A stretch of DNA of 64,000 bases. Source: a virus (lineage: Duplodnaviria > Heunggongvirae > Uroviricota > Caudoviricetes). The notes beneath the pieces are model-generated. The model was not told the DNA's origin and ran no database searches. It saw only the letters and a list, made by a program, of their open reading frames with translations. The DNA lies in the IMG/VR virus record IMGVR_UViG_2724679237_000005, positions 32,001 through 96,000 of that record; one strand, given 5' to 3'. The position numbers were made by a program, and so were the translations under genes. Shown here piece by piece: positions 2,839 to 34,054 of the stretch. Numbering within the stretch: position 1 is the first letter of the stretch; the number at the start of each line of letters is the position of its first letter.

Positions 2839-2853
2839 AATAACCTCACAAAG

Positions 2854-2869
2854 ATAAGTAATTACTTAT
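2854..2869. promoter_or_regulatory. perfect 16-bp palindrome ATAAGTAATTACTTAT upstream of thyA (member of ACTTACTTAT motif family)
   Basis: read directly; 16 nt upstream of thyA start. Confidence 0.5.
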
Positions 2870-2912
2870 TCATTGCGTGAGTTTACATTTATTGAGGGGA
2901 CAAGGCCAGATA

Positions 2913-2945
2913 GATAAAAAAATGGTGGCCATAGGCCACCAAAAA
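2913..2945 (-). terminator. rho-independent terminator after NTP-pyrophosphatase gene
   Basis: 8-bp stem tggtggcc/ggccacca followed by T-run on minus strand. Confidence 0.55.
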
Positions 2946-3009
2946 CGAATAGTTGTTTCAGGAATTTAACGCGCCAACACAATATACATAGATAGATAAC
3001 TACCTACAA

Positions 3010-3879: not shown

Positions 3880-3956
3880 GCTAGTTTTGTTCCTTCTTAA
3901 TTCTTGTGATCCATTGTGGCCCAGCGTTGCCAGGCCACATAATGCTTTGTATCGGT

Positions 3957-5099: not shown

Positions 5100-5129
5100 G
5101 TGTTTTTCCTTTTGTTTTTTGATGTGTTT

Positions 5130-5148
5130 AAACAAGTTGTTATCTTAT
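5130..5148 (-). promoter_or_regulatory. conserved palindromic element AAACAAnTTGTTnTCTTAT (site 1, upstream of nrdB)
   Basis: motif recurs at 23251, 29287, 42815, 45744. Confidence 0.5.
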
Positions 5149-5166
5149 TTGTTTAAACAAGGCTTA

Positions 5167-5199
5167 CAAATCAAAGAGAAGGTGGGGATACACCCCACC
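5167..5199 (-). terminator. terminator after nrdA
   Basis: stem ggtgggg/ccccacc, then T-rich tract on minus strand. Confidence 0.5.
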
Positions 5200-5204
5200 A
5201 TATG

Positions 5205-7520: not shown

Positions 7521-7523
7521 GTA

Positions 7524-7562
7524 TCACCAAATAAAGAGGGCCACTATATTTAGTGGCCCATG
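7524..7562 (-). terminator. terminator between RuvC-like gene and nrdA
   Basis: 9-bp stem gggccacta/tagtggccc followed by T-rich run on minus strand. Confidence 0.5.
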
Positions 7563-7593
7563 TTAATAGATAAGCACTTACCTATCAATGAGA

Positions 7594-8163
7594 TCAAATG
7601 AGAGACTTGAGAACATCGCGCACCTGGCGAAACTGATCCGTTTGCATACCGGTATGGATGGCAGCCACCGCATCAGCCAAATGTTCGTTTTTGTTCACGA
7701 GAACATCCTGTCCAGATTGCTTACGACGCAGCCACGGTGCTTTAGGGTGTTTTTTCGTAGCCCACTGGATAATCTCTTCTTTCGATGTAGTAAGTTTATT
7801 GCCGACAAAATGCTTAATTTCGTTTGGAGTAACCTGGATCAATGGCTTATCCACACACGCAAGTACACCGATACAAATACCGTAAGACGTCTGCGAACGA
7901 GAGTTTTGGCTCCCAACCGGTAGCTCACAAAAAACCATATTCGCCTTATCAATGATTGGCTTCGCAACACGCCATATTTCACTGGCACGGCGCAGATCGT
8001 CACTGTTCACACGAACGGTCTTTTTGTTACTCCCCGCTTTAGTCTCAACAAGAGTAAGGCCGTGAATCTCAAGTTCGTCCGTTTCAAGGTCTAAAGTGCC
8101 CACAGCAAGCCCAAAGTTGCTCATCGAGGGATCAACACCAACTACGCTGATTTTTTTACTCAT
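7594..8163 (-). CDS. RuvC-like Holliday junction resolvase
   Basis: N-terminal VVGVDPS acidic motif and C-terminal EHLADAVAAI resembling RuvC DAADALA motif; AAGGAGA RBS. Confidence 0.5.
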   Translation of the reverse strand: MSKKISVVGVDPSMSNFGLAVGTLDLETDELEIHGLTLVETKAGSNKKTVRVNSDDLRRASEIWRVAKPIIDKANMVFCELPVGSQNSRSQTSYGICIGVLACVDKPLIQVTPNEIKHFVGNKLTTSKEEIIQWATKKHPKAPWLRRKQSGQDVLVNKNEHLADAVAAIHTGMQTDQFRQVRDVLKSLI

Positions 8164-8172
8164 ATAGTCTCC

Positions 8173-8916
8173 TTACCATGTTCCCCATAGAGGGTTTTCC
8201 AATAATCTCGCCTCCAACGAATTGGCTACTATTGCCGTTTGCAACGTTGGTTGGGGATAGTTTGCAAAGTCTGAATACTCATTTTCCTGCGTGACACGTT
8301 TATCTACGGCATGTTTAACGCCACTTGCTATGAAATGACGCATGATGCCCAACAGCCTCCGACTGTCTGCACTATCGTTTGCTAAAACATGAGGGAGCTG
8401 AAGTTCGATTTCTACCATTTCTCCATACTTACCAACAAACTGTAGTTTGTCCGCACTGTACTTTTTATCCCTCCTTTGGATAAGGAAACCAGTAAAAGCA
8501 TCACCTGGCGATGCCAAACTATCCACCCGCTTATTGGCAAGTCGAATAAGGTTCGTGAAAGCCATACAGTGATGCGCACCCATTCCCCCAAAGAACCCTT
8601 CGCTATTAATGTTAAGATCTTCAGTTTCATGGGATGCAATAAACCCAGGCCCGACGTTGGGAAGATATCCCCCCTCAACAAAAGGATTAATCAGGATCGG
8701 CGCAATACATCCAGGTGGTAGTGATTTCAAACTTTGCATCAATGGCGTCTCGGATATTAGACCAAGCAACGCGGCGAATTGTACTCCGTCAATATTGTTG
8801 CTGCCCCACAGAATACGTGGAGCCGCACCATTGGAAGTATGCCCATTGATCAGTTTTATCGACTGCATCACTGCAAATACCTGCAAAAACTGCGAGCGGC
8901 TTAATTTAAACGACAT
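8173..8916 (-). CDS. hypothetical protein
   Basis: 247-aa ORF overlapping sbcC-like stop by 11 nt; no recognisable motif. Confidence 0.5.
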   Translation of the reverse strand: MSFKLSRSQFLQVFAVMQSIKLINGHTSNGAAPRILWGSNNIDGVQFAALLGLISETPLMQSLKSLPPGCIAPILINPFVEGGYLPNVGPGFIASHETEDLNINSEGFFGGMGAHHCMAFTNLIRLANKRVDSLASPGDAFTGFLIQRRDKKYSADKLQFVGKYGEMVEIELQLPHVLANDSADSRRLLGIMRHFIASGVKHAVDKRVTQENEYSDFANYPQPTLQTAIVANSLEARLLENPLWGTW

Positions 8917-10822
8917 AGCTGCGCCCCTCTTTAACTTCCAGCGTAATAGTTTCCCGGAACCATGACTTCATCTCTTTATGGGAGATAATCAGCACAGTAC
9001 CTCGCTCGCGAGCTTTGGACTCCAGAATACCCATGAGGCGTTCAAGACCGGCTGTATCGAGTGCATCGTCAATTTCGTCGCCGATAAACAAATCGATGTT
9101 TTTACTCGCCCGGTTACTAACCAGATCCTGCAATGCCAAAGAACACGCAATGCGAACCTTCCGCTTCTCACCACCAGAGAGGGTCTGGAACGACTTACTT
9201 GAACCTTTCTTCTGCACACTAATGTTGAATTTGTCGCGATACTCACCTTTTTTAGTGACATCCATCGTCGACCACTCAGCAGTAATATTCCCGTCAGACA
9301 ACGTATTGAGATACTCGGCTGTGCGTGTATTCAGGAAAGGCGTAACAGACGTCAAAATATGAGAACGCACCCCGGCAGGAGAGTAGACCTGACGAGCTTT
9401 TTCCAATAGCAACGTTTGTTCCTGAATAGCCTTTAACTCGTCTTTTAAGGACTTGAAGGTAGACTTACTGGATGCCAGGTTATCTTCGTGTCTGGCGATA
9501 AGAGCAATAAACGGATTAATCTCTTTTGATATACGATCGACCTCAGTACGAGCACGAGTAACAAGAGACTCAATAGCAACAACCTCCTTCTCACGATGAC
9601 GCAAAGTTGAGAGTTGTTTAGTAAGCTCTTCAATCCGGGCAATGATAGCCGTTACATCAGGTGTCGTTTTAACAAGGGCAGACTCAATGCTTAACGCCTT
9701 CTCAAGATTCGTTTTGTGTTTAGCCATTGCCTCTGCAAGTGTCTTCGCCTGACCAATTTCCTGACGTGCTTGTTCAATGAAACTCTCCTTCACCGTTGAT
9801 AGATCTTCTTCGCAGTAGGCTTTGCCACAAGTAGGGCATGGTGATCCCACTTTAGTACCAACCTCTTCTGCTTTGGTCTTAAAATTACGCGCGCGGTTCA
9901 TTGCATCAGCCTGACTATTTTCTGTAGCTTTGATGCTTGCCCGAATATCAGTTATCGCACCACGCACTTTGAGCAACTTGGCATCATGTTCTTCTTTTGA
10001 GGCTAACTTTTTGCGCTCACTTTCGATTGCCTTCTCGGTATCACGGATCTGTTCGGGAAGAGTGCGGATCTCAAGTTCAACTTCCGTTAACTCAACTTCG
10101 GCACTTGCCAACCCAGCTAGGGCATCGTCATAACGTTTAGAACGCTCTTGCTCCCATGATTCAGAGGAGGCTTTCGCGGACTCAATTTCTGACTGTGTTG
10201 CCTCAATGGTCGAGATTGTCGACTCCAATTTGGTTTTAATCACGTCCATACGTGCGGCAGCTGCGTTAGCTCGTTCACGAGCAATAGCGTAGGCGCGTGT
10301 CAGTCTGTCAACGCCAGCGGCTTCTTCTACGATGGTTTTGAGATTTTTGTCGGACATTCCAGGTAGATCTGGCATAGCTTCTTGGCTTGCATAGATGGAA
10401 GCCATGAAAACTTCTTTAGATGCACCGATCAGACGCTCGACGAACTCCTGCGTCAGCGCATCTTTGCCTTTCGTCATATCGCCATCTTCACCACGAACGA
10501 TAAGACGATTTTTGAACTCTTTGTGTTTACGGTGACGAATGATCGCGTATCTCTTGCCTTCATCCTCGATGGTTACTGCAACACGACAGTTCTTTTCATG
10601 GTCGGTAGACAACACATCGTCACCCTTCACACCATGAGCTGTTTCGCCATAAAGACACCACATCAGGCTATTCATTAGCGTTGACTTTCCAGAGCCATTG
10701 CTTGATGCGGAACTATCATCACTATTAACGCCCTGAATTAGCACTAAACCACGCTGATCTAACTCGACCTCCGCGCTGGCGATAGCCATAAAATTCTCAA
10801 CCTGGAGTTTTAAAAACTTCAT
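8906..10822 (-). CDS. sbcC: SbcC/Rad50-like recombination ATPase
   Basis: N-terminal Walker A GSGKST, long coiled coil with central CPTCG zinc hook, C-terminal signature and Walker B. Confidence 0.8.
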   Translation of the reverse strand: MKFLKLQVENFMAIASAEVELDQRGLVLIQGVNSDDSSASSNGSGKSTLMNSLMWCLYGETAHGVKGDDVLSTDHEKNCRVAVTIEDEGKRYAIIRHRKHKEFKNRLIVRGEDGDMTKGKDALTQEFVERLIGASKEVFMASIYASQEAMPDLPGMSDKNLKTIVEEAAGVDRLTRAYAIARERANAAAARMDVIKTKLESTISTIEATQSEIESAKASSESWEQERSKRYDDALAGLASAEVELTEVELEIRTLPEQIRDTEKAIESERKKLASKEEHDAKLLKVRGAITDIRASIKATENSQADAMNRARNFKTKAEEVGTKVGSPCPTCGKAYCEEDLSTVKESFIEQARQEIGQAKTLAEAMAKHKTNLEKALSIESALVKTTPDVTAIIARIEELTKQLSTLRHREKEVVAIESLVTRARTEVDRISKEINPFIALIARHEDNLASSKSTFKSLKDELKAIQEQTLLLEKARQVYSPAGVRSHILTSVTPFLNTRTAEYLNTLSDGNITAEWSTMDVTKKGEYRDKFNISVQKKGSSKSFQTLSGGEKRKVRIACSLALQDLVSNRASKNIDLFIGDEIDDALDTAGLERLMGILESKARERGTVLIISHKEMKSWFRETITLEVKEGRSYVV

Positions 10823-11010
10823 ATAACACCTCTGATACCGTGTGTTAGCTTTTGGCCTTCTTTCAATCTGAACTCCGTATGCGCCGGGAAGGATCTACGC
10901 CTCAATACGCCTTTTTTGGTTAACCTTCCTAGATAAAACGCTACGGGATTTCCTTGTGGCGGGTAGGGCTTGTGAAACATCACCGTCTGGCCTCGTTCAA
11001 GTCTTTTCAT
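10819..11010 (-). CDS. small hypothetical protein
   Basis: short ORF filling gap between sbcD-like and sbcC-like genes; weak. Confidence 0.2.
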   Translation of the reverse strand: MKRLERGQTVMFHKPYPPQGNPVAFYLGRLTKKGVLRRRSFPAHTEFRLKEGQKLTHGIRGVI

Positions 11011-11051
11011 CGTGATGGCAAAGTCTCGAAAGCTCCCATAACGACTTTGCC

Positions 11052-12137
11052 TCACACAGCCTCCGAACTCTCCGCTTCGGTGAGGATTTCCTGACACAAA
11101 ATATCCAACTTGCTCAGATCAAATCCGCCGTCAGTATCGTGAACAATCTTGCAATAAGCAGATACCGACTCTCCTAGGCTATCGATTTTGCTGGTTTCCG
11201 TTGTGCTTGCTGTCCCTTCCATCATTGATGACTTACGGATGAAGTTGCACACGACACCTTTTGCACCCATTGTTTTGAGGATGTTCTGGTACTTAATGCC
11301 TTCTTCATCGTTCTCAATTACGGCGCGGAAACGCACGTAGTTGCCGCGAATTTGGTCATCAGCAACATAATCTTCCAGGTTAATGAATTTAGGCGCACTG
11401 GTTTCGTAGTGACTGAAACTGCCGTCCGGGTTTACGATCATGTAACCAGCCAGAGATCCAACATCTCCCCAATTTTGATGGGTCAGTGCACCGACACTGA
11501 TAACTCCAGGAATGACCTCTTTGTGGTTGTGGTAATGCCCACTAAGCACGAGACGAAAGCCGATATCCTTTAACTCCTGCGCATCGATACCGACGTCAGG
11601 CATTGTTGGAATGGCTTTGTTAATGGATGTATGGATAACAACGTCATGATTATCACCTTCTACGCTCTTACGTAATGCTTTCAGATCGCTGATAAGCTCC
11701 GCATGATTGTTACGCCAGCTAATCAGGTGGACAGTCACATCACCAATTTTTATTGAGTGTGGGCGCTTGCCACATACGATTACCACGCCGATAGAACTCA
11801 GCGATGCTGCTGCGTTGGCGCTATATACTGAATCGTTGGTTTCAAGATCGTGATTACCGGCCAGCATTACTACTGTCAGATCAAGCTCGTTGATAATCCA
11901 CTTGTACGTTTCAGTTACGTAATGCAAAACAGAAGGGGACACAGTTCCTCGGACGTGAAATGTATCACCGGCAACCAACATGTACTTACAACCGGCCTTC
12001 TTCATGGCGATGGCTGCTTCTTTCGTTGCTTCCAACTGTATTTCAAGTCTGGAGTTAAGCCCCTCAGCGTTCGTCGTGGAGAACGCATCCCATTTGTGGT
12101 AGTGGCAGTCAGAAATGACGCCGTATGGCAAAGTCAT
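11052..12137 (-). CDS. sbcD: SbcD/Mre11-like nuclease (calcineurin-like phosphoesterase)
   Basis: DCHYH, GDTFH and GNHD metallophosphoesterase motifs; AAAGGA RBS. Confidence 0.8.
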   Translation of the reverse strand: MTLPYGVISDCHYHKWDAFSTTNAEGLNSRLEIQLEATKEAAIAMKKAGCKYMLVAGDTFHVRGTVSPSVLHYVTETYKWIINELDLTVVMLAGNHDLETNDSVYSANAAASLSSIGVVIVCGKRPHSIKIGDVTVHLISWRNNHAELISDLKALRKSVEGDNHDVVIHTSINKAIPTMPDVGIDAQELKDIGFRLVLSGHYHNHKEVIPGVISVGALTHQNWGDVGSLAGYMIVNPDGSFSHYETSAPKFINLEDYVADDQIRGNYVRFRAVIENDEEGIKYQNILKTMGAKGVVCNFIRKSSMMEGTASTTETSKIDSLGESVSAYCKIVHDTDGGFDLSKLDILCQEILTEAESSEAV

Positions 12138-12391
12138 GTGTTTTTCCTTTGTGGTTATTTTGATACAAATTTTAAGAGCAATGAGAAGGTAAACAACTAT
12201 GCATAACGGTATGTTAGGAATGAAACGAGCGTCTTAATATACAAAATTTATAAGTAAGTATATACCTATTTGTTGTGGCGCAACTTTGCTTGTCTGTATG
12301 ACTAAAAATAAGACAGGATCACTGTAGAACGCTATGAGAGCTATTTTGAGGGGGCGTAGATTCTATCTACGCCAATATACGATCTGGAGGG

Positions 12392-13036
12392 TTACAGCGC
12401 GTCAGTGGGCTTTTTACGCGCTGCGTTTATGCTTATGACGCCAGCTTTTGGACGTGGGTCAACAAGGTTAAGCTCTTCTTCGCTGTGGTATTCGAGGTCG
12501 AACTCACGTTTTACATGTCTGATGTAGATTGCGGTGAGCAGGCTATCTTTGGTCAGAAAGTGTCCGTAGGATTTGCGGATCACTTCTTCTACCTTCTCGA
12601 TTTTCTCACCACCCATACAGAGATGATTAAACCGGCTGTGTTTCCGCAACATTTCGTCTACTGGGCCTGAGTAAACCTTGTCTACTTTCCCAAAACGGAT
12701 GATTTTCCCTGTGTCTGCGGATACGAGGCAAATCAGCTTGTCTGGTGATAAACGATCTCGCCACGTCACACCTGAACGGAGTGTGTTGAAGTAGGGAGCA
12801 TCCAATCCGATGATCGGTTTACGAAATGCGAGTAATGGAACGTACCTGATGCAACTGTTTAAATGAAAATTCACACCAGCCTTATCAAGTTTAATTCTGG
12901 TTTCGTAGATCGGGCACTTCGCCGCTATACCGCAGATGTCACAAAGCAACTTCTGCTTATTCAGGTTGGAATTTGATTCGATAGTGTAGGAGCCGTCTTC
13001 AAGACGACGAACCCAGCGCGTGCGTTTTAGATCCAT
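12392..13036 (-). CDS. hypothetical protein
   Basis: 214-aa ORF with ATG start; no recognised domain. Confidence 0.45.
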   Translation of the reverse strand: MDLKRTRWVRRLEDGSYTIESNSNLNKQKLLCDICGIAAKCPIYETRIKLDKAGVNFHLNSCIRYVPLLAFRKPIIGLDAPYFNTLRSGVTWRDRLSPDKLICLVSADTGKIIRFGKVDKVYSGPVDEMLRKHSRFNHLCMGGEKIEKVEEVIRKSYGHFLTKDSLLTAIYIRHVKREFDLEYHSEEELNLVDPRPKAGVISINAARKKPTDAL

Positions 13037-21335: not shown

Positions 21336-22505
21336 TCACGTCTTAATAGTTTCTGCTACGTCGGCTAATATCGCTTCTAGTCGTTCTCCCTCTTCAGGTC
21401 TGAAGTAAAGAATGTTGGGGTTAAACCCGTAAAAGACAGTAACGTCAAGGTCTGGAAGATACTCCTTCCTGCCGACCAAATCGGATGGCTTGTTTTTGTT
21501 GTTAAACAATGCCGTTGCCCGGCTGCCACACGTCAGCACATAGGTCGGACGCACCAGATTGATCTCTTCACGTATAAAGTCGGTGAACTGGCCGATCTCG
21601 TCTTTGGTGTAGTCTTTTTCTTTGTCTTTAACCTTCTTGCAAACGCCTGTGACATAGAGATCGCCCATGCGTAAATCTCCAGCCGTCAATAGCTTGGCCT
21701 TAAAGTCGTCGTATCCGTTCTCCATAAAGTAACCGGTTCGAGCATCATTGCCGTTCGCATTGTCCAGAATGATCATGATTTTCGGCTTAATACCAATGCT
21801 GGGGCGGATTAGTTCATCACCTAAGCCCATTTCAGCCGCCATCCGCGTCATGAGTACGTTAATTTCAGCCGAACGTTTGGGGTTCATCTCAAACGAACGT
21901 GAGGCTTTAACTGCGTCTATGACAAGATTTCCCATCAATTCAGCCTGGTCGCGTAGGCGCTCTGGAGCAGTTGCTGGCAGACTACCTGGCTCGATGGATG
22001 CAAACGCCCCTACTTTTTGCAGCGATTCGCGCACTCGACTATTACAGGCACGTTTCTCGACAGCTTCTTCGAATTGCGCCAGTGACTCGAATTTGCCGCC
22101 AACTTTTTCTCGCGCTCTCATGATGGCTTGGCAGCCATTCTCAGAACACCCCTTCACAGCAGAGAATGGCGCATACAGCACCTGGCTGCCATCTTCAAGC
22201 GTGCGGATCTCGATTCGGTTAGATGACACGTTAACGTCTGGTGGCAATACGCGAATTCCATAGGTCAGCGCATCTTTAACCAGCCCTTGGTGTTTATCTT
22301 CGCCAAGAATAGTGAGAGCAGCAGCGAAAAACTCTGCGGGATAATGAGTTTTCAACCACATAGATTGATAACTGATTAAGGAGTAAGCAACAGAGTGTGA
22401 TTTGTTGAAGGCATACGCGCCGGATTTCTCAAACATATTCCAGATTTCTTCGGCTCGTTCGTGCGTCAGGCCATTGCTCTCTTCAACTACACTGGTAATT
22501 TTCAT
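21336..22505 (-). CDS. dnaE: DNA polymerase III alpha (DnaE-type) C-terminal fragment
   Basis: YAFNKSHSVAYSLISYQSMWLKTHYPAEFFAA matches DnaE segment following the fingers domain. Confidence 0.8.
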   Translation of the reverse strand: MKITSVVEESNGLTHERAEEIWNMFEKSGAYAFNKSHSVAYSLISYQSMWLKTHYPAEFFAAALTILGEDKHQGLVKDALTYGIRVLPPDVNVSSNRIEIRTLEDGSQVLYAPFSAVKGCSENGCQAIMRAREKVGGKFESLAQFEEAVEKRACNSRVRESLQKVGAFASIEPGSLPATAPERLRDQAELMGNLVIDAVKASRSFEMNPKRSAEINVLMTRMAAEMGLGDELIRPSIGIKPKIMIILDNANGNDARTGYFMENGYDDFKAKLLTAGDLRMGDLYVTGVCKKVKDKEKDYTKDEIGQFTDFIREEINLVRPTYVLTCGSRATALFNNKNKPSDLVGRKEYLPDLDVTVFYGFNPNILYFRPEEGERLEAILADVAETIKT

Positions 22506-23236
22506 TCAGTCACCTCATCAATCTTCACGAACTCATACCCATTGGAGGCCAGCCAGTCCCGCTGGCGCTCCCAGCTCCATACCTTTTCACGCATTTCGCT
22601 ATGCAGGCGAATGTGGGCGTCTTCTGGAAGTGCCACCAGATTCCCAGGGGCGTTATCTACCGTATCGCGGTTAATATGGTGGACATGTTCATCGTCACGT
22701 AGCTCCCGACCGAGACGTTCTTTCGCTATCAACCGATGAACGTATTCGTATTGCGAAACGCCATTGTTACCAACCAGCTGCATCATGTAGCCGTTGGTTT
22801 TTACGATGATGCCATCTTTGTAGTTGTTCGCTTCTTCTCCGATCTTTCCGCGTTTGGCAGCCGCCAGCTTTTCCTTCGTCTCCGCGCGGATTGTTCTGCC
22901 GGTTAGCTTTTTCGAAACGGTGGCCACTCGCTCATCGATATCAGCACGCAGACCGGCATTCCACGAGGTTTTCCCATACATAGGGTTGCCAGTGCCAGTC
23001 CGGGCTTCGGAGAGTCGCTTCATACGTTCGTCATTATTTTTGTTTTTGCCACGATTCCAGGCTGGGGTAGCGGAGATCCGCGCGTTTCCGCGCCTGATCC
23101 CCCATTTGGCTAATAAGCGGTCAATATTTGCCTTGCTGCAACCAGCTTCGGCGGCAATGTCTTCTTTTCTCATCAGGTCAACCATGTAACGCTGACGTAA
23201 CCATTCTTCTGTGATTTTGTACTTCGTACTCGGCAT
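22502..23236 (-). CDS. HNH homing endonuclease inserted between dnaE fragments
   Basis: C-terminal HNH motif (EHVHHINRD...N) plus NUMOD-like repeats. Confidence 0.75.
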   Translation of the reverse strand: MPSTKYKITEEWLRQRYMVDLMRKEDIAAEAGCSKANIDRLLAKWGIRRGNARISATPAWNRGKNKNNDERMKRLSEARTGTGNPMYGKTSWNAGLRADIDERVATVSKKLTGRTIRAETKEKLAAAKRGKIGEEANNYKDGIIVKTNGYMMQLVGNNGVSQYEYVHRLIAKERLGRELRDDEHVHHINRDTVDNAPGNLVALPEDAHIRLHSEMREKVWSWERQRDWLASNGYEFVKIDEVTE

Positions 23237-23250
23237 TTCTAAGACTCACT

Positions 23251-23269
23251 AAACAAATTGTTTTCTTAT
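23251..23269 (-). promoter_or_regulatory. same element, site 2 (upstream of HNH endonuclease gene)
   Basis: AAACAAATTGTTTTCTTAT. Confidence 0.5.
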
Positions 23270-23284
23270 CTTATAAATTAATTC

Positions 23285-25648
23285 TCAAATATCGAAGCTC
23301 GTTATGTCGGCATTTATTGCCATTGCTTCGGCATAAGTGCGACGCTCACCATCAGCACAAAGTAGGCGTGCTGCTTTATGGATTTTTCTCGTAGAACCGT
23401 CATCCAGTGACACTGTCACCCAGCCTTCCTCCGCTCGCTTAATGAAGTCGCCGCCAATGGATTTCATTTTCTCCATATCTTTTTTCCCGATCGCTTTCCT
23501 GACCGAGTCTGCTTCCGCCATTGAGAACCCCGCCAAGATTCGCGTAGCAGCCATGATCTGTTCCTGATAAATCAGAACACCGTTTGTGTCGCGAGAGATG
23601 TCGTCCAGCATAGGGTGTAAGGAATGTGGAGCCATGAAGCCTTTGGCCACGGAGACATAGTCGTCCAACATGCCGGATTGAATCGGGCCTGGTCGGAAGA
23701 GTGCGGTCGTGGCGACAACGGTCTTGAAGCTCATTGGCTCGATGCCACCGCCCAGATCTTTAAGCAACTTACGCATGGGGCCGGACTCCAGCTGGAATAC
23801 GCCCTGCGTGTACCCTGCAGCGAACCCATCCAGAACCTTGCGATCGTCCAGTGGGATAGCGTCGAGATTGATATCTTCACCTGTGTTCTCTTTTATGTAG
23901 CGTTTTGCACTATCGAGCAAATCGAGAGTTGCCAGGCCAAGCACGTCCAGCTTAATTAGGCCCATAGCCTCGCAGTAACGCTTGTCAAATGCGATACAAC
24001 GCGCGTCACCACGTCGTTCAACCGGTGTACGTTCTGTCAGAGGAACACCTGCTACGATCATCCCTGCCGCATGTCTACCAAAGCCACGCATAAGGCTTTG
24101 TAACTTGCAGGCTGCATTGAATGCATCAGGATATTTTGTTGCGTATTTGTCGAGACTTGCCAGTTGTTCGCGCAGTTCTTCCAATGGAAGGCTATCATCC
24201 TCAGCGTTCTTCAGTTCTTTTGATACCGCCATATCTGCGGACTCCACACCATAAATACGAGCGGTGTCACGTAGTGCAGAGGCTGCGCCCAGGTAGGTGA
24301 AGTTCGGAATGCCTGCAACGTAATCTTCGCCGTAGCGTTCATTCAGATACTCGATCACCTCATGGCGACGTGCCTGGCTGAAGTCCAAATCCGCATCTGG
24401 CAAGTCGAGACGCTCAGGGTTGATGAAACGCTCAAACAGAAGACCGTGACGGATTGGGTCGACGTTGGTTATGCCTATGCACCACGCCACCAGAGAACCG
24501 GCAGAGGAACCACGACCAGGCCCAACGGGAATGCCAGTTTCACGACTATGATTCATCAGATCGCGCACCATCAGGAAGTAACCACAGAATCCCAGGCGAG
24601 TCAGCGTGTCCATTTCGTACTTTAGCCGCTCAACATAAACCCTGTTCTCAGAAGCAGGTGGTGTGTATCCAAACTCTTTTGTGGTAAGACGTTTACGCAG
24701 CCCTGCAACAGCCAGTTTCATCAGCGTTGCAGGTTCGTCGTCTGCCATCTTGGGCAGTGCTGGTGGCAATTCATGCCAGCGCCATGTGCAGGAATCGATA
24801 ATGGTATCCTGCGTTGTTGAGGCCATTGCAGCTGTTACAGGCACATCCATGCGAACGGAGAAGGCTTTAAGCGCCTCAAGGAGATGGCGGCGACCATTGA
24901 CGGCGTTATCTCGCTGGTGGGGGATACGCAGACGATGCGGCTGGTCGATTTTGATGTTGTTCGTAACCATGTGCGCAATGTCTTTAATGTCTGCATCGTC
25001 GATCGATTCGTAATAAGCGGGATAGAACGCCACTGGCTCTATTTTCAATGCGCTGGCGACTTTCATCGCCCGGACGTTAATCTGGTCGTAGAATGGGGTA
25101 GGGTGCGGATAAACCACACTATAGAAGTTGTCTTTTCCACCCGCTGTAATCAGTGTGCTTATGATTTTTGCAAAATCGTTGCGTTGGAACACGCTACCGA
25201 TGTCGGAAGTAAGCAGGATGATGTTGCCTTTGGCATATGTAGAAACCAACTGTTCGAGCGAGAGACGCGGTACAAAGTAGAACTGTTCTCGTGTGTTGGC
25301 CGCCGTCATTAGTTCGCAGATGTCGCGATATCCTTGCTCATTTTTAATTAGAGCGGTAAACGAGTAGTTACGTCCCCGCTCTAATGATTCCATACATCTC
25401 ATAGATTCTTTAGCAAGTTTAGCCCGGTGCTCGTATGTGGGATCATCAACAATGTTTAGTTTCACACCACAAATAACCGCCATGTCGTCACCAGCGGCAC
25501 GTTGTAGTGGAATAACGCTCGCAATATTCATGCTATCTGCTGAAATTACAGCGGTGTAGCCAGCTTCTCTGGCAATCTTCACCGCGTTTTCTGCTTTTAG
25601 AGCCGACTCCCCAAGTGAGAAGTCAGTTCGAACCATCAGTGCCTTCAT
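23285..25648 (-). CDS. dnaE: DNA polymerase III alpha (DnaE-type) N-terminal fragment (PHP, palm, fingers)
   Basis: GFCGYFLMVRD, PVGPGRGSSAGSLVAW, FQLESGPMRKLL, LFRPGPIQSGM, IYQEQIMAA align to DnaE. Confidence 0.85.
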   Translation of the reverse strand: MKALMVRTDFSLGESALKAENAVKIAREAGYTAVISADSMNIASVIPLQRAAGDDMAVICGVKLNIVDDPTYEHRAKLAKESMRCMESLERGRNYSFTALIKNEQGYRDICELMTAANTREQFYFVPRLSLEQLVSTYAKGNIILLTSDIGSVFQRNDFAKIISTLITAGGKDNFYSVVYPHPTPFYDQINVRAMKVASALKIEPVAFYPAYYESIDDADIKDIAHMVTNNIKIDQPHRLRIPHQRDNAVNGRRHLLEALKAFSVRMDVPVTAAMASTTQDTIIDSCTWRWHELPPALPKMADDEPATLMKLAVAGLRKRLTTKEFGYTPPASENRVYVERLKYEMDTLTRLGFCGYFLMVRDLMNHSRETGIPVGPGRGSSAGSLVAWCIGITNVDPIRHGLLFERFINPERLDLPDADLDFSQARRHEVIEYLNERYGEDYVAGIPNFTYLGAASALRDTARIYGVESADMAVSKELKNAEDDSLPLEELREQLASLDKYATKYPDAFNAACKLQSLMRGFGRHAAGMIVAGVPLTERTPVERRGDARCIAFDKRYCEAMGLIKLDVLGLATLDLLDSAKRYIKENTGEDINLDAIPLDDRKVLDGFAAGYTQGVFQLESGPMRKLLKDLGGGIEPMSFKTVVATTALFRPGPIQSGMLDDYVSVAKGFMAPHSLHPMLDDISRDTNGVLIYQEQIMAATRILAGFSMAEADSVRKAIGKKDMEKMKSIGGDFIKRAEEGWVTVSLDDGSTRKIHKAARLLCADGERRTYAEAMAINADITSFDI

Positions 25649-25832
25649 GTGTTTTTACCTTTCTGGTTTTTTTGATTTTGTCATTGGGGAAGCCTACGAA
25701 CTTCCCATGCATCGAAATCGCAACTTCTTTTGCTGATTGGTGACAATCGGGCTTGTCTGGACACACCAGACAAGCCTTACCAGTTTCAGAAGCAGCGATA
25801 AGAGAGCCGAAACATCCTTTACGCACGATCAA
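25623..25832 (-). CDS. small Cys-rich hypothetical protein
   Basis: 69-aa ORF with C-x4-C...C-x2-C-x5-C-H; overlaps both neighbours; weak. Confidence 0.25.
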   Translation of the reverse strand: MIVRKGCFGSLIAASETGKACLVCPDKPDCHQSAKEVAISMHGKFVGFPNDKIKKTRKVKTHEGTDGSN

Positions 25833-27064
25833 CCAAATATTTTTTGAACAACTTCACGAGCCGCTTGTGCAGAAGCTGAAGGGAGTTTGTTAATGAAAGA
25901 ACGCTCAATACCTGTCACAAAGTCGCCTCGCATCATTCCAATCTTGGCCGACAACAAAAGTTCACGAGGGCCAATTGGCTGACTGATAAGGTGTTCTTCG
26001 TATCCATCGCGAACGATACCGGCAAACTTAACCATCTTTTCTGCGTATTCATCCACGATACCGGCATTTATCAACATGTTGATCTCTGCCTCTTTGCTCA
26101 TGTATTTCACATTCGAAACGATGCCAAAACGCGAAAAGTTCGCGGCGTTCTGGATGTTTGTACCCTGGTACAAGCCGGTTTCATCACCAGATCCGTTCGT
26201 GTTGCCAGTGCCAATGAAAGCAAACCGTTCATGCGGAGTAATGCGACGCCATTCTGGAGTCGCCTCTTTGATGACCAACGCTTCACCTTCCAGCACTGGC
26301 TGATACACGCCAAGAATCTGTGGAAACGCAAAGTCGTATTCATCCGCGAGGTAAACCCAGCCATGCTTCATTGCGAGCGCAAGCAAGCCAGGTTCGAAAT
26401 ACGTAGAGCCATCACGCGCCAGAATTTGCCCCGTAACATGTGCCTCTTCCATTGATGCTGTATGTTGGGCACGGATCAACGGACGATTGAGCAAAGCACA
26501 TAGCTGTGTAGGCAATGACGATTTGCCTGTTCCTGCATGACCCCACAAATAGCCAGGTATGCCAAGTTCAAGCATCATGAAAATATCTTTGATCAGTTCG
26601 AAGTCGCCATATACGTAGCCTTTCTTCACTTCGGGAACGAACTCTGGAAACGGCGTATTGACGTTGACGCTAACCATGAGCGGCGTCCCACGTTTTGTTC
26701 CGAGTTCTTCCACCGTTACGTCTAGCAGTTCGTGAGCTGCGACCAGATCTGTCTTGTACTCAACTGTGCCTGTGTAGCCTGGGCTACTGGTCACGCCAGA
26801 TGATTTGGCCATTTCGCTTTTTTGCTCGGCACGTTTAGCTTGAATTGCATCAAGTGCCTTTTTCGATAGCGTTGGCTCATCTGGAAACTGTGTTGTGTAC
26901 ATTTTCAGTACGGTGTCAGGATCGGCATCTTTTACTGACTCAGGAATGCCCTCGCAATTACCATTGGCTACATGGGACTTAAAATAGTGAAATGATTTTC
27001 CGCACCACTTGCAAACAAGGTAATCAGAAGGATTTTTTTCATTTTGCAGTGCAGTAGTCGTCAT
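25829..27064 (-). CDS. CobS-like / MoxR-type AAA+ ATPase
   Basis: Walker A GHAGTGKSS, Walker B LADEYD; paired with vWA gene. Confidence 0.7.
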   Translation of the reverse strand: MTTTALQNEKNPSDYLVCKWCGKSFHYFKSHVANGNCEGIPESVKDADPDTVLKMYTTQFPDEPTLSKKALDAIQAKRAEQKSEMAKSSGVTSSPGYTGTVEYKTDLVAAHELLDVTVEELGTKRGTPLMVSVNVNTPFPEFVPEVKKGYVYGDFELIKDIFMMLELGIPGYLWGHAGTGKSSLPTQLCALLNRPLIRAQHTASMEEAHVTGQILARDGSTYFEPGLLALAMKHGWVYLADEYDFAFPQILGVYQPVLEGEALVIKEATPEWRRITPHERFAFIGTGNTNGSGDETGLYQGTNIQNAANFSRFGIVSNVKYMSKEAEINMLINAGIVDEYAEKMVKFAGIVRDGYEEHLISQPIGPRELLLSAKIGMMRGDFVTGIERSFINKLPSASAQAAREVVQKIFG

Positions 27065-27159
27065 GCGTTTTTCCTTTGTTTTCTAATGAGCGTTCAACTT
27101 CTTATATAAATATATCATTAACTATCGTAAGTGGTTACTTATCATTAAGGCTGTTTTGT

Positions 27160-29268
27160 TCACTTTAAAATGATACGAGATAGTTCAGTAACTACAGATG
27201 AACCAAGACTATCAACGCTCGTTACCAGGGCATGATTTGAGTAAAATCTCTCCGGTGCGTCAGTCATGATGCCAATTGCCATCAAATCAATGTCAGTCTG
27301 CGTTTCAATTTGTTTCGCAACCGAACGCAAATGAGCGTCAAAACCTCTCCCAACAGCCCACGGCGCGCCATCACTCAGAACAAGCATGATCTTCCTGTCC
27401 TCCATGCGACCGGAAAATAACGATGCAAGGCTGGCTATGCTTTCACCATCCACGTTATTAAGAAGTGGGAATGTGTAGCCTACGCACCCCATACGTGAGC
27501 GAACTTCGCGAGAATTTACCTTTTCATTCCAATTTTTGATGATAGGTAGCATTAAAGATTCAAAGCGAGAGAACTCATACTTGACAGCCTTAAGTTCTCC
27601 TGCCGCCATATGACTACCAAATGTAGTGAAGCCGGTGATAATGTTGGGAACATTTATTCGATCAAGGGCATCGGCGATGGTATATGCACTTGCAAGAGCC
27701 AATTGTATCGTTATACCACTCATTGAACCTGATAAATCAATCACTTGTTGAACACAGGCGTTAACGGCTTTAGATTCTTCTTTTTTACGAAACACGCGAT
27801 CATCATTCATTGCTAATCTGTAGATACTAGAACCATGAATGCGCCCCCGACGCTGGCCCGGTATAAACTGAACTCTGTTTCTGCTTGCTATTGCTCGCTC
27901 TAGGTCTTTTGCCAGCGTCGACGAAACACCTGACGAAAGATGCTTTTCAATATATTTGTCGAAGAGCTGGTTGCCTTCAGGAACGATGCGATAGCGGCTG
28001 ATTGGATATCCTCCCAAATCAATATCGGAGAATGTTTTAATAAGCCGTTTGATATGGGCTTCTGCCTGATCAATCGAGCCGATGAAGTCGTATGAGCGAT
28101 TGTATGGCCTGTATTCGCTTTTCGAGCTTTCTGTTAACTCGCTTTTAATCGTTTCGGATAGAGCATCTTCTGTCATGCCTCCGACTTCATCTTCTATGCT
28201 ATCCAGCTCCTCTAAAGCCTCTTCCAGACTCATTTTTGACGGAGTTGGAATATCTGAAGAGCCGTCTTCTGTCGTTTTTCTTTTTTCGTGGTCAGCGGTT
28301 AATGATTCTGACGCCGCGTTATCAGAAGCATCAGAATCTGATACCTCTTCATCATTTTCTGTATCATCGAATATTGTTTCTGATGATTCAGAATTATCTG
28401 AATCATCACTGTCGTTATTATCATGTTTGTGCTTACTGTGTGATTCTGGTTTGATAGATTTGTGATTATCTAACGCTGAGGGTGTCTCATAATCTTCGTT
28501 ATCTTCATTGTTTTCTCCAGAGGCATCCGTCTGGTCAGCGTCTGAAGGATCGGAAGTTTTTCCCGGAGCTGACTCCTTACCTTTGCTTTCACTTTCAGTG
28601 TCTTTGAGGATCTTAGCTATGGTCGCAGCCACCTTTACACAATCCTCGGTGCAAGACATGTTACGCACAGCCACATCGATACCATGTTCTTTTAATAATG
28701 AAATTGGTTTCTCAATGACAGGCCAGTATTCATCCATGAAATCTACGAACGGTGCTTGGCCATCCCAGGCTCTTACAACCGGACAGAGAAAGAAGTTTAG
28801 AAAAAGCGCGCGCTGATCTTTGCCACAATAAGCAATAGCCTCTGAAGCCTTTGGTTTAAAGACTTTTTCGATTATAAGGCGCTGAGTTGCCATCAGATTA
28901 CGTCTTGTTCCGTTAAAGACCTGCCCCATTTTTCGCTCGATGAACACGTCTTCTAAGGCATTCCATAGCGACCAGGAAGGAACGCGTCCTTTTTCTCTCA
29001 TTTTGTTGGACACACGAATATCGGTAAACAAAATGTGAGCAACCTCATGATCGAGAAATCCGCGCACAGCATTCATCAATGCCGGTGTTGCGTTATCCGG
29101 GATTGATGGGATGTTTACGAGAATTGGCTCTCCATCATCGTTATAGCGTACATAAGCGTCGTCCCCTCGTTCTGCAACAGGGATGTTTTTACCTGAAAGG
29201 AGAGCGACAACTCGTTTTACACTGTCACGGAAGTCCTGAACCTCTTTGATGGAACGTTTTTTAGACAT
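27160..29268 (-). CDS. CobT-like protein with C-terminal von Willebrand A domain
   Basis: MIDAS motif VIDLSGSMSG; long central Asp/Ser/Glu-rich acidic low-complexity linker. Confidence 0.7.
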   Translation of the reverse strand: MSKKRSIKEVQDFRDSVKRVVALLSGKNIPVAERGDDAYVRYNDDGEPILVNIPSIPDNATPALMNAVRGFLDHEVAHILFTDIRVSNKMREKGRVPSWSLWNALEDVFIERKMGQVFNGTRRNLMATQRLIIEKVFKPKASEAIAYCGKDQRALFLNFFLCPVVRAWDGQAPFVDFMDEYWPVIEKPISLLKEHGIDVAVRNMSCTEDCVKVAATIAKILKDTESESKGKESAPGKTSDPSDADQTDASGENNEDNEDYETPSALDNHKSIKPESHSKHKHDNNDSDDSDNSESSETIFDDTENDEEVSDSDASDNAASESLTADHEKRKTTEDGSSDIPTPSKMSLEEALEELDSIEDEVGGMTEDALSETIKSELTESSKSEYRPYNRSYDFIGSIDQAEAHIKRLIKTFSDIDLGGYPISRYRIVPEGNQLFDKYIEKHLSSGVSSTLAKDLERAIASRNRVQFIPGQRRGRIHGSSIYRLAMNDDRVFRKKEESKAVNACVQQVIDLSGSMSGITIQLALASAYTIADALDRINVPNIITGFTTFGSHMAAGELKAVKYEFSRFESLMLPIIKNWNEKVNSREVRSRMGCVGYTFPLLNNVDGESIASLASLFSGRMEDRKIMLVLSDGAPWAVGRGFDAHLRSVAKQIETQTDIDLMAIGIMTDAPERFYSNHALVTSVDSLGSSVVTELSRIILK

Positions 29269-29305: not shown

Positions 29306-29366
29306 TGTGTTTAATGTAGCACTGCGCGAACAGGGAACTAAGCCATTCGCGCAGGGAGAAGAGGGG

Positions 29367-29579
29367 TTAACAGATTCTGACGGCTAAAGACCCGGAGCCG
29401 GTATTGAGAAGCGTGAAGCGTTTGTTGTTAAGTTCGAATATAAAGCCAGTTGTGTCATTCACACCAACCTGAATCTGCTCATTCGGTAGATCGGTGAGGA
29501 TGTCAGCTACACACTCATCAGCTAATTTCTGTACGTGTCCGATCTCAAGAGCGATTAGGCTGGAAATAGTGGTTTTCAT
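29367..29579 (-). CDS. hypothetical protein
   Basis: 70-aa ORF. Confidence 0.4.
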   Translation of the reverse strand: MKTTISSLIALEIGHVQKLADECVADILTDLPNEQIQVGVNDTTGFIFELNNKRFTLLNTGSGSLAVRIC

Positions 29580-29830: not shown

Positions 29831-30217
29831 ATGTCTGACAACAAGATTGAATTTATAGAAAGTCGCTATGCTGCTTTTATCGCAGGGCTGATTGAATCCT
29901 CACCTATGAGTCAGGCCCAAATAGCCAGACTTATTGGTTATAAAAATGCCAACAACCTTTCTTTAATTAAAAGTGGCAAAATTCCTTTGCCTATCGATAA
30001 GGTTCGTCCGCTGGCGCTGGCGCTGGGTATTGAGCCAAGTCGTCTTATGATGATGGTGCTGGAAGAACGCCAACCTGAACTCGCAGCATTTTTATACAAA
30101 GAAGGCACCGCTCCTCTTAACGAGGACGAAAAACAGGTTCTTGCTGCATATAACGAGCGATTCGGTAAAGAGAAAGGCGCATCACAAAAGGTTGTTGAGG
30201 CCATAAAGTCTCTATGA
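29831..30217 (+). CDS. XRE-family helix-turn-helix transcriptional regulator
   Basis: SQAQIARLIGYKNANNLSLIKSGK HTH; convergent with recombinase gene. Confidence 0.7.
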   Translation: MSDNKIEFIESRYAAFIAGLIESSPMSQAQIARLIGYKNANNLSLIKSGKIPLPIDKVRPLALALGIEPSRLMMMVLEERQPELAAFLYKEGTAPLNEDEKQVLAAYNERFGKEKGASQKVVEAIKSL

Positions 30218-31315
30218 AAAATTTACACGAATAAGCTCTGTTGATAGACGATCTCCCTTGAATTTGTGGTCAATTTCGTCTAAATCCGGTTGCTCTACGA
30301 TTGATGCGATGTACGTCGAGAAACTTTCTAAGGCGTCTCGCATCTCGTCCATATAATCGTGCCGGTCGTAGACCCGATCTATCCCCTCAAGACTGTGGTT
30401 CATGATTTTGCGTGATACCTCCTGGCTTATGCCTAATGCTGGGAAGTAACTACGCGCAGTACGGCGCAAATCTCGGGGTGTAAATGGCTCAAGCTCCATC
30501 AGTTCTGGTCGTTCCAGAATACGACGTAATGCCTGGGCTATTGCCACTTTAGACATAGGAAGGTCTTTCCCGATTTTTTTATTCGAAGGCACGAGCCACT
30601 GGCTATCTTTACCGTATTCGAACAACTCTTCAATGCATGTGCGCATTAATGTGCTTAAAGGCAGCGAATGCTCACGTGCTGACTTGTTTCTTTTGCCTTG
30701 ATTCCAAACCCCACGCTTAAGATTGAACTCACTTTTTTTAGCCCGCAGTACTTCGTCAGGTCGTCTTGCTGATACAAGACACAGCCTGGCCGCCCATTTT
30801 GTACCAGCGCACACATTGAAGTAGTCCCATATATTCCAGAACACCCATACCTCTGCGTCGGTCAGCTTCCGCTCGCGAGGTGTGGGCTTTGCGCCACCGG
30901 CAACTTTGTTTAGTGACATATCGTTTAACGGTGACACGTCTATCATTCCCTGGAAGGCGCACCAGCTAAGGAACTGCTTCATCAGAGAGAAAACGCGGCG
31001 GCCCATAACAATTTTGCCATCCAGTATTAGTGGGTTGACCAGTTGGTTCACCATGAACCTATTAATGTCACTTACTTTTACATCGGCAATGTGCGGCAAA
31101 ACATGTATCAAAATACAATGAACAGCGATCTCTGGCCGACGTCTTGTTATCAGCAGAGATAAGCGAGTGAATAACATGAATGCGTCCGAGAATCTCATGT
31201 CATTGCTGACCTGGGAGATCATAACGGCCTGCATTTGAGATGCTCTTTCGAGATACTCAATCGCCTCTTTTGAGGTGTTCTCCGCAGCGCGTGCTCTGTC
31301 AAAGCTATTTTTCAT
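30212..31315 (-). CDS. tyrosine site-specific recombinase (integrase or resolvase)
   Basis: C-terminal catalytic region with LRRTA, NHS and YDRHDY (R-H-R-Y family layout). Confidence 0.85.
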   Translation of the reverse strand: MKNSFDRARAAENTSKEAIEYLERASQMQAVMISQVSNDMRFSDAFMLFTRLSLLITRRRPEIAVHCILIHVLPHIADVKVSDINRFMVNQLVNPLILDGKIVMGRRVFSLMKQFLSWCAFQGMIDVSPLNDMSLNKVAGGAKPTPRERKLTDAEVWVFWNIWDYFNVCAGTKWAARLCLVSARRPDEVLRAKKSEFNLKRGVWNQGKRNKSAREHSLPLSTLMRTCIEELFEYGKDSQWLVPSNKKIGKDLPMSKVAIAQALRRILERPELMELEPFTPRDLRRTARSYFPALGISQEVSRKIMNHSLEGIDRVYDRHDYMDEMRDALESFSTYIASIVEQPDLDEIDHKFKGDRLSTELIRVNFS

Positions 31316-33807: not shown

Positions 33808-33883
33808 TGGTGCCGGTTAACGGACTTGAACCGCTGGCCATTCGCTTACAAAACGACTGCTCTACCAACTGAGCTAAACCGGC
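33808..33883 (-). tRNA. tRNA-Thr (anticodon UGU)
   Basis: acceptor GCCGGTT/AACCGGC, D-arm GCTCAGTTGGTAGAGC, anticodon loop TTTGTAA, T-arm AGCGGTTCAAGTCCGTT, CCA. Confidence 0.8.
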
Positions 33884-33887
33884 AATT

Positions 33888-33974
33888 TGGTGGGGAGTGA
33901 TGGAGTCGAACCACCCGAGTCGCCATGACAGTAGATTTACAGTCTACACCGCTACCTCTACGGACTAACTCCCC
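33888..33974 (-). tRNA. tRNA-Tyr (anticodon GUA), long variable arm
   Basis: acceptor GGGGAGT/ACTCCCC, anticodon arm GTAGA-CTGTAAA-TCTAC, T-loop GGTTCGACTCC, CCA. Confidence 0.7.
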
Positions 33975-33979
33975 TAAAT

Positions 33980-34054
33980 TGGCGATGGTGGGTGGATTCG
34001 AACCACCGACCAGTTGGTTAACAGCCAACTGCTCTACCGCTGAGCTACACCATC
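33980..34054 (-). tRNA. tRNA-Asn (anticodon GUU)
   Basis: acceptor GATGGTG/CACCATC, anticodon arm GTTGG-CTGTTAA-CCAAC, T-arm GGTGGTTCGAATCCACC, CCA. Confidence 0.8.

Follow-up and report, generated by a model that had tools for sequence, protein, structure and literature searches.

The 64,000-nucleotide stretch of viral DNA analyzed here (the window; positions 32,001 to 96,000 of IMG/VR record IMGVR_UViG_2724679237_000005) carries a pair of adjacent genes whose products resemble CobS and CobT, the motor and adaptor subunits of cobaltochelatase. The region of the pair is 97.7-99.1% identical to the Escherichia phages Cyrano, CMS-2020a and PhiR41_1, and its identity to Salmonella phage SSU5 is 75%, which identifies the window as part of an SSU5-type phage-plasmid, a member of a well-described group (PMC7969092). 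An original prediction, made from the DNA letters, had pointed to the interval of the pair, and this interval corresponds exactly to two minus-strand open reading frames (ORFs). The cobT-like ORF lies 95 bp upstream of the cobS-like ORF on the same strand, and both genes have good ribosome-binding sites. Scans for promoters and terminators around the pair returned no more sites than were found in shuffled sequence and were uninformative. The features of the pair are the following.

27160..29268 (-), cobT-like gene, encoding a 702-residue adaptor with a zincin-like N-domain, an acidic disordered linker, a putative shaft and a vWA domain with a MIDAS motif (metal-ion-dependent adhesion site)
28573..29268 (-), N-domain of the CobT-like protein, residues 1-232: helix a1, a three-stranded sheet and a helical bundle (putative M48-like zincin fold)
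29035..29049 (-), HEVAH, residues 74-78, the HExxH motif of a zincin, checked by translation
28936..28953 (-), EDVFIE, residues 106-111, with a residue that may be the third zinc ligand or the catalytic acid of a gluzincin
28249..28572 (-), acidic intrinsically disordered linker, residues 233-340, defined by composition and AlphaFold2
28114..28248 (-), conserved acidic helical segment, residues 341-385 (MSLEEALEELDSIEDEVGGMTEDALSETIKSEL), at the start of the folded C-terminal half
27760..27888 (-), putative shaft, residues 461-503, the segment expected in the pore of the CobS ring
27163..27759 (-), vWA domain, residues 504-702, with MIDAS residues D511, S513, S515, N605 and D633
25829..27064 (-), cobS-like gene, encoding a 411-residue AAA+ ATPase (the motor)
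26642..27064 (-), N-terminal extension of the CobS-like protein, residues 1-141, with a zinc-finger-like motif CxxC-x4-H-x4-H-x5-C at residues 18-37 (nucleotides 26954-27013)

The claim that the two genes encode a CobS/CobT-like AAA+ ATPase and a MIDAS-containing vWA protein was upheld by matches both to Pfam and to solved CobS and CobT structures. The CobS-like protein matches Pfam AAA_5 at 2e-15, and its residues 142-411 match solved Brucella CobS (9ujv) at 1.8e-25. The CobT-like protein matches Pfam CobT at 7.9e-27 (residues 9-294) and CobT_C/vWA at 1.3e-82 (residues 492-701), as well as the solved CobT chains 21vt and 9uka at 1e-15 and 2e-13 (9uka 1.9e-13). Both proteins also belong to viral PHROG families, phrog_249 (3.5e-106, CobS-like residues 11-410) and phrog_1576 (3.3e-301, CobT-like residues 5-702). 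The further claim that the pair is conserved stood as well, with 77 phage records and 1843 plasmid records. The adaptor gene adjoins a CobS-like or AAA ATPase gene in all five phage contexts inspected, and adjacency of cobS and cobT was seen in SSU5, RHEph10, nickie, ICP2, CRP-810 and Woes; a match in Xanthomonas phage JGB6 was left out because its annotation is ridden with frameshifts. The original prediction had opposed this assignment to an unrelated MoxR chaperone system. This opposition is a false one, because the authors of the CobST structures place CobS/CobT themselves among the MoxR-type motor-adaptor pairs (bioRxiv 10.64898/2026.07.21.739949). By sequence comparison, we assign the pair to a mobile-element subfamily of CobS/CobT-type (MoxR-class) motor-adaptor machines and do not regard it as a cobalt chelatase.

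The catalytic residues of an AAA+ motor are intact in the CobS-like protein and, together with its homology to CobS, place it in the AAA+ family: Walker A GHAGTGKS (residues 175-182), Walker B D241-E242, sensor-1 N288, the Arg finger R312 and sensor-2 R367. These residues were mapped by hand from the Brucella CobS alignment onto the residue numbers of the structural report (bioRxiv 10.64898/2026.07.21.739949), and Walker A and B were checked by translation. G175, G178, G180, K181, E242, N288, R312 and R367 are invariant in an alignment of seven sequences, in which D241 lies outside the invariant columns. The SSU5, RHEph10 and nickie groups share the N-terminal extension, which is absent from Sinorhizobium CobS, from Vcrx089 of IncC plasmids and from the ICP2 homologue, and a Pfam scan matched it to no family. 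Its C2H2-like motif, CKWCGKSFHYFKSHVANGNC, may bind zinc; the second Cys is lost in RHEph10.

The CobT-like protein carries a zincin motif in its N-domain. HEVAH falls within a helix at residues 62-81, and the downstream acidic residues E106, D107 and E111 fall within a second helix at residues 98-117, so that the complete motif is in place. Among 147 relatives, H74 and E75 are each kept in 145 and H78 in 144, while E106 is kept in 146, D107 in 145 and E111 in all. The third zinc ligand may lie within EDVFIE. HExxH is found in SSU5-type proteins, in Rhizobium phage RHEph10, in Vibrio phage ICP2 (HECYH) and in the IncC plasmid protein (HEAAH). True CobT from Sinorhizobium, the comparison sequence, which comes from a replicon of the plasmid collection, shows GDSMALR and VEQARVE at the aligned positions, not HExxH and Glu. 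A search of PDB sequences with the N-domain profile gave no CobT match. A marginal match to the anti-CRISPR AcrIIA26 (9zq6_B; E 0.007, 19 bits) was regarded as chance; it covers window positions 28936-28990 (CobT residues ~93-111) and the motif N..ED..IE....G.

The C-terminal half of the CobT-like protein holds the putative shaft and the vWA domain. The MIDAS residues D511-x-S513-x-S515, N605 and D633 align with Brucella D422/S424/S426/N518/D546 and are invariant in 69 aligned relatives, which places the domain among the MIDAS-vWA domains. The putative shaft aligns just before Brucella MIDAS residue D422, in the region that holds the Brucella shaft, Q373-R413 (bioRxiv 10.64898/2026.07.21.739949), and appears in the AlphaFold2 model as a hairpin-like segment of lower confidence. 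By analogy, it may insert into the pore of the CobS ring.

Between these two halves lies the linker. An Asp/Ser/Glu/Asn-rich low-complexity region had been predicted here, and the composition scan bore it out, delimiting a hydrophobic-poor stretch at approximately residues 222-345 from which acidic helices continue to approximately residue 385. Over residues 222-385, Asp and Glu make up 32%, Ser makes up 18% and the net charge is -38. The AlphaFold2 model of the full-length protein has an overall pLDDT (predicted local distance difference test) of 82.6, which drops below 50 at residues 237-337. By contrast with the linker, residues 341-385 are conserved within the SSU5 group, and the model places two helices there, 348-356 and 366-382, with pLDDT of 82-90, as part of the C-terminal half. 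In the SSU5 group the linker is 149-253 residues long with a net charge of -22 to -79, and it is only 28-48% identical to that of the window, whereas the flanks are 75-82% identical. DNA tandem repeats were ruled out as the origin of the linker, as none was found in the DNA that encodes it.

For family-wide linker statistics we used 147 representatives at 30-59% identity. Linker length ranges from 42 to 292 residues (median 155), and the linkers have a median Asp plus Glu content of 39% and a median net charge of -46, with 99% of them net negative. The linker is therefore a family-wide trait, and that of the window is below average in acidity, which does not support the description of it as extreme. 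Nor is it special to this protein or to phages, since true bacterial CobT has an acidic linker too; in the Brucella CobST structures, the ~90-residue CobT linker is invisible and was called disordered by the authors (bioRxiv 10.64898/2026.07.21.739949). Of the suggestion that the region is flexible or phosphorylatable, the first part stood, in agreement with the Brucella disorder, the low pLDDT and the fast divergence. The second part did not: Ser content varies from 2 to 25% among the relatives (the window, ranked 16th of 147, is relatively Ser-rich) and only the charge is kept, so we rejected a role as a phosphorylation target. A role as a specific DNA mimic was likewise rejected, because the true chelatase CobT bears the same kind of linker. 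We conclude that the linker is real and flexible and that its negative charge is under selection. The HExxH motif, the ~140-residue extension of the CobS-like protein and the absence of the third subunit of cobaltochelatase, CobN, to which we now turn, had not figured in the original prediction.

Tests for orthology with the B12 enzyme failed by a wide margin. The CobS-like protein scored 84.8 bits against the NCBIfam equivalog TIGR01650, whose cut-off is 558.55 and which the Sinorhizobium control matched at 651, and the CobT-like protein scored 66.4 bits against TIGR01651 (cut-off 759.05; Sinorhizobium control 1164), in an alignment that covers only residues 295-697. By these scores, neither protein is orthologous to a cobaltochelatase subunit. 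No CobN-annotated product was found in the approximately 96% of the 99%-identical Cyrano genome that was inspected; no CobN query was run on the window itself. Cyrano encodes its own ribonucleotide reductase alpha and beta subunits (class I/Ia type, which is not B12-dependent), ThyX and dihydrofolate reductase. The Cyrano record OV696614.1 (locus excerpt 9230-12669) labels the pair 'cobalamin synthetase' and 'dimethylbenzimidazole phosphoribosyltransferase', a misannotation that arises from a name collision with the unrelated CobS/CobT of Salmonella nomenclature. E. coli is not known to have a de novo B12 pathway or a CobN, and V. cholerae, the host of ICP2, is not known to synthesize corrins. 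Salmonella and Klebsiella use the CbiK route. CobN would thus be available neither in the element, as far as the inspected parts of Cyrano show, nor, as far as is known, in the host. Synthesis of B12 in E. coli needed heterologous cobN, cobS and cobT (PMC6249242). Viral CobST has been proposed to hijack the CobN of the host (Liu et al. 2021, PMC8651126), and this idea is not readily applicable to these hosts. Because the adaptor keeps a zinc motif that is absent from true CobT and CobN is not encoded, the pair probably does not serve B12 synthesis.

Relatives are also carried by plasmids. A tblastn search with the CobT-like protein returned 1843 plasmid records, 825 of which are predicted to be conjugative, and among them are SSU5-like phage-plasmids from Escherichia, Salmonella, Klebsiella, Enterobacter, Yersinia pestis (pMT1) and Acinetobacter. 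In a sample of matches spread over the results, weaker matches (N-domain only, residues 1-187, 33% identity) occurred on large plasmids and were mostly annotated 'VWA domain-containing protein'; the one inspected is an IncC plasmid. Its module (pAMA566, locus excerpt 1804-9797) encodes an AAA ATPase, a hypothetical protein, ssb, bet, exo, a DUF3150 protein and an HExxH-vWA protein, and the CobS-like and vWA genes lie ~5 kb apart within this one module. The IncC AAA ATPase is 30% identical to the CobS-like protein of the window (E 1e-27; 2.9e-25 in the search of the window). The hypothetical protein encoded after it we take to be Vcrx090, and SXT elements presumably carry the same mobile-element branch, in keeping with their published core gene list. 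Judging by gene order and by the Pfam domains of Roy et al. (2020, PMC7498323), the IncC ATPase corresponds to Vcrx089. Deletion of vcrx089-090 lowered transfer into V. cholerae 25-fold in an hsdR-dependent manner (PMC7498323) and raised restriction by EcoBI and EcoKI 424- and 906-fold (PMC11602122), and vcrx089-090 is listed in AntiDefenseFinder (PMC11724313).

We propose, as a fairly probable interpretation by analogy with the solved chelatase, that the pair is a CobST-type motor-adaptor machine whose client is some protein different from CobN. Its architecture would follow that of the solved Brucella CobST(N) structures (bioRxiv 10.64898/2026.07.21.739949). Six CobS-like subunits would assemble into an ATP-driven ring that hydrolyzes ATP. 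The CobT N-domain would dock on the small subdomain of CobS at the rim of the ring, and the C-terminal half would insert its shaft (approximately residues 461-503) into the central pore, with the MIDAS face of the vWA domain directed away from the ring. The ~105-residue acidic disordered linker would tether the two halves at their separate sites, so that a client could be clamped between the N-domain and the MIDAS face. In the true enzyme this client is CobN (bioRxiv 10.64898/2026.07.21.739949). Since no CobN is encoded by the element and none is known in E. coli, the client here would be another protein, and because the complete zincin signature (HExxH and a downstream Glu) is kept, it may be cleaved as well as remodelled. 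The position of the pair in an early replication/recombination module suggests that it is probably active at establishment or in early lytic growth. As the client we would first suspect a host protein that threatens the DNA during entry or replication, for example a restriction protein or another defence protein, and the next candidate would be a component of the element's own DnaE replisome. In a rough ranking, a defence or DNA-targeting protein comes first as a tentative choice and a protein of the element's own replication or recombination second as a more doubtful one; a structural protein is improbable, CobN is least probable, and other clients make up the remainder.

The version of the motor-adaptor proposal that we favour, tentatively, is anti-restriction or evasion of host defence, in which the machine would remove or inactivate a host nuclease, such as a type I restriction-modification enzyme, upon entry and would operate like the Vcrx089-090 system of IncC and SXT elements. 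Vcrx089 is the CobS-like AAA+ protein at 30% identity and E 1e-27 described above, the double deletion of vcrx089 and vcrx090 sensitizes plasmids to type I restriction-modification (PMC7498323, PMC11602122), and its IncC module also holds the gene for a CobT-like protein of the HExxH-vWA type. Furthermore, the family occurs on phages, phage-plasmids and conjugative plasmids whatever the B12 metabolism of the host, and the pair adjoins the repressor and early region. A 128-residue helix-turn-helix repressor-like gene (+) and a 367-residue integrase-like gene (-) are located at 29831-31315, directly upstream of the cobT operon, and such neighbours place the pair beside a likely lysis-lysogeny control region. 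A bolder idea is that the mobile-element branch of CobS/CobT is an ATP-driven, vWA-targeted zinc protease that destroys a host defence or DNA-metabolism protein on entry, the client being captured between the MIDAS face and the HExxH domain, and that the B12 enzyme is a derived, catalytically dead offshoot of it, or the reverse; we hold this to be a doubtful but conceivable scenario.

Several observations weigh against the motor-adaptor proposal or its defence version. The homology to Vcrx089 is remote, and by sequence the CobS-like protein is as far from Vcrx089 as from true CobS. Vcrx090, the proven partner of Vcrx089, has no homologue in the window (best match E 0.24, which amounts to none), nor does DUF3150, and the vcrx089_090 system, which is recognized by the presence of both partners, is therefore not present as such. 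The IncC vWA gene was not among the genes reported as required in a transposon sequencing screen. The peptidase activity of the CobT-like N-domain is predicted from the motif, and catalysis is not universally required, because Pseudomonas phage nickie (locus excerpt 6974-9058) has lost the motif in its CobT-like protein, with LDSEISK for LDHEVAH and LESFFCE for LEDVFIE. The acidic linker, which true CobT also has, is no specific DNA mimic. Lastly, the synteny with dnaE may reflect the common descent of ~110-kb phages rather than a functional link.

A second, less likely possibility is that the pair is a replication or recombination accessory that would mature, metallate, load or recycle a component of the element's own DnaE replisome or of its recombination machinery. 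In Cyrano, structural and lysis genes occupy 0-28 kb, and the pair is located at 43-46.6 kb in a replication/recombination block with the order helicase, primase, ligase, tRNAs, integrase, repressor, small ORF, cobT, cobS, dnaE, followed by HicAB, UvsY, SSB, exonuclease and RecA. Three diverged groups, those of SSU5, RHEph10 and nickie, keep the primase-ligase-cobT-cobS-dnaE order, with ~32% identity between their CobT proteins. The genes downstream of cobT also overlap: a 69-residue Cys-rich ORF starts at a TTG that overlaps the stop of cobS, and its last 26 nt overlap the start of dnaE (ATG), which suggests that these genes are expressed together with the polymerase. ICP2 carries the pair upstream of genes for primase, helicase and polymerase, IncC plasmids carry the relatives near ssb-bet-exo, and the MoxR/vWA pairs NorQD, CoxDE and CbbQO mature metalloenzymes (bioRxiv 10.64898/2026.07.21.739949). 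On the other hand, the shared order is perhaps merely inherited, the ICP2 polymerase comes from a different family and no polymerase is encoded by IncC plasmids themselves. The neighbours are, moreover, uninformative in CRP-810 and Gordonia phage Woes, where the pair lies away from any recognizable replication genes.

The small ORFs that flank the pair are the following.

25623..25832 (-), 69-residue Cys-rich ORF between cobS and dnaE (phrog_6337, 2e-45; SSU5_051 in SSU5)
29367-29579 (-), 70-residue ORF (phrog_2627)

The 69-residue product has C7, C21, C24, C30 and H31, and other small ORFs are found at its position in RHEph10 and nickie. Between the 70-residue ORF and cobT, a 9-bp inverted repeat (CTGCGCGAA ... 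TTCGCGCAG) without a T-run is located at 29325-29375 (-) and could be a processing or attenuation element. A cluster of three tRNA genes at 33811-34054 (-) matches by position the tRNAs for Ser, Thr and Asn in the Cyrano annotation. The gene for the DNA polymerase III alpha subunit (window 21336-25648, -) is in two pieces: 25648-23306 corresponds to residues 1-781 of the intact DnaE of Cyrano, and 22511-21345 to its residues 778-1166. The ~800-bp insert holds a 244-residue ORF (22502-23236), read from its sequence as an HNH-type endonuclease, and Rfam detected no group I or group II intron at the insert, which looks like a free-standing homing-endonuclease insertion or an unrecognized intron. 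Among the PADLOC defence models, the sole match, DrmE at E 0.0014, was considered meaningless.

It is unlikely that the pair is a chaperone or protease that helps to assemble and process structural proteins of the virion. This role was proposed for a pair of the same architecture in group 2.2 jumbo phages (Iyer et al. 2021, PMC7824862), and a MoxR-vWA pair was reported to be necessary for the tails of Acidianus two-tailed virus; however, the pair is part of the replication module, with >15 kb between it and the terminase-to-tail-fibre block, and its relatives are found on conjugative plasmids, which make no virions. The usual annotation, an auxiliary metabolic gene by which phage CobS/CobT and host CobN would form a cobalt chelatase and raise the supply of B12, is very improbable, since against the matches of both proteins to the CobS/CobT families of Pfam and TIGR and to solved chelatase subunits, and against the proposed hijack of host CobN (PMC8651126), stand scores 7- to 11-fold under the equivalog cut-offs, an E. 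coli host that is not known to have the de novo pathway or CobN and to which cobN/S/T had to be added (PMC6249242), no CobN annotated in the inspected parts of Cyrano, a class I-type reductase that does not depend on B12, and an N-domain that could not be aligned by sequence with the CobN-contacting domain of true CobT (CobT_N) and bears HExxH instead.

These results bear on how such genes are counted, because cobS and cobT are routinely listed as viral B12 auxiliary metabolic genes in cyanophages and in marine and gut viromes. Here the B12 reading very probably fails, because the element encodes no CobN and none is known in E. coli, the scores lie far under the orthologue thresholds and the adaptor has a protease-type zinc site that is lost in the true enzyme. 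If the zinc-protease scenario were true, many of the 'cobS/cobT auxiliary metabolic genes' of viromes would be mislabelled counter-defence or takeover genes. SSU5-like phage-plasmids are frequent in clinical Enterobacteriaceae and carry resistance genes, and since Vcrx089 of IncC plasmids, the nearest relative with experimental data, helps plasmids to escape restriction, the function of the pair could bear on establishment in new hosts. The viral cobST clusters (PMC8651126), the jumbo-phage pair of a MoxR ATPase and a metallopeptidase-vWA protein (PMC7824862) and, from a 2026 preprint, the M48-like fold of CobT_N and its disordered linker (bioRxiv 10.64898/2026.07.21.739949) are already known. 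New here are the contrast between true CobT, which has lost HExxH, and the mobile-element branch, which retains it, the failed equivalog tests, the link to the IncC module for evasion of host defence and the family-wide linker statistics. The solved CobST structures offer a concrete template for mutants of the shaft, the MIDAS, the HExxH motif and the linker. The main value of the analysis is a caution against the B12 label together with a tractable functional candidate.

Compared with cobaltochelatase CobS/CobT of Brucella, Pseudomonas and Sinorhizobium (9ujv, 9uka, 21vt), the pair has the same catalytic residues in its AAA+ motor, the same adjacency of genes and the same adaptor plan, in which a putative M48-like N-domain is followed by a disordered acidic linker, the shaft region and a vWA domain with a MIDAS. 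It differs in that it has no CobN partner, that its scores are far under the equivalog cut-offs, that its adaptor keeps HExxH and Glu where Sinorhizobium CobT has GDSMALR, that its CobS-like protein has an extra 140-residue zinc-finger-like extension at the N-terminus and that its linker measures ~105-165 residues as compared with ~90 in cobaltochelatase CobT. Mg-chelatase, BchI/BchD (ChlI/ChlD), resembles the pair in combining an AAA+ motor with an adaptor that has an acidic linker and a C-terminal integrin-I/vWA domain. The N-domain of BchD is AAA+-like, however, not M48-like, and BchI belongs to a different AAA+ clade (bioRxiv 10.64898/2026.07.21.739949).

Among the systems of mobile elements, the viral cobST clusters (PMC8651126; PHROG 249/1576) have the same gene pair and the same domain architecture, with no structural difference from the window; the hijack of CobN that was proposed for them is implausible in E. 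coli. The pair of group 2.2 jumbo phages (PMC7824862), compared by its description, likewise consists of a MoxR ATPase gene beside the gene of a vWA protein that bears a zincin-like metallopeptidase domain at its N-terminus, but the genes of the window belong to the replication module of a 108-kb temperate phage-plasmid, which is an ill fit to virion assembly. The IncC/SXT locus (PMC7498323) differs in that its ATPase has no N-terminal extension, that the linker of its vWA protein is rich in Gln, Asn and Gly and, by eye, less acidic, that the CobT_C match of this protein is marginal, and that its genes are ~5 kb apart and accompanied by Vcrx090 and DUF3150, which have no counterpart in the window. 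In common with the window it has a CobS-like AAA+ protein, which is 30% identical, a CobT-like protein of the HExxH-vWA type, which is 23% identical along its full length and 33% in the N-domain, and a setting in the recombination module of a mobile element.

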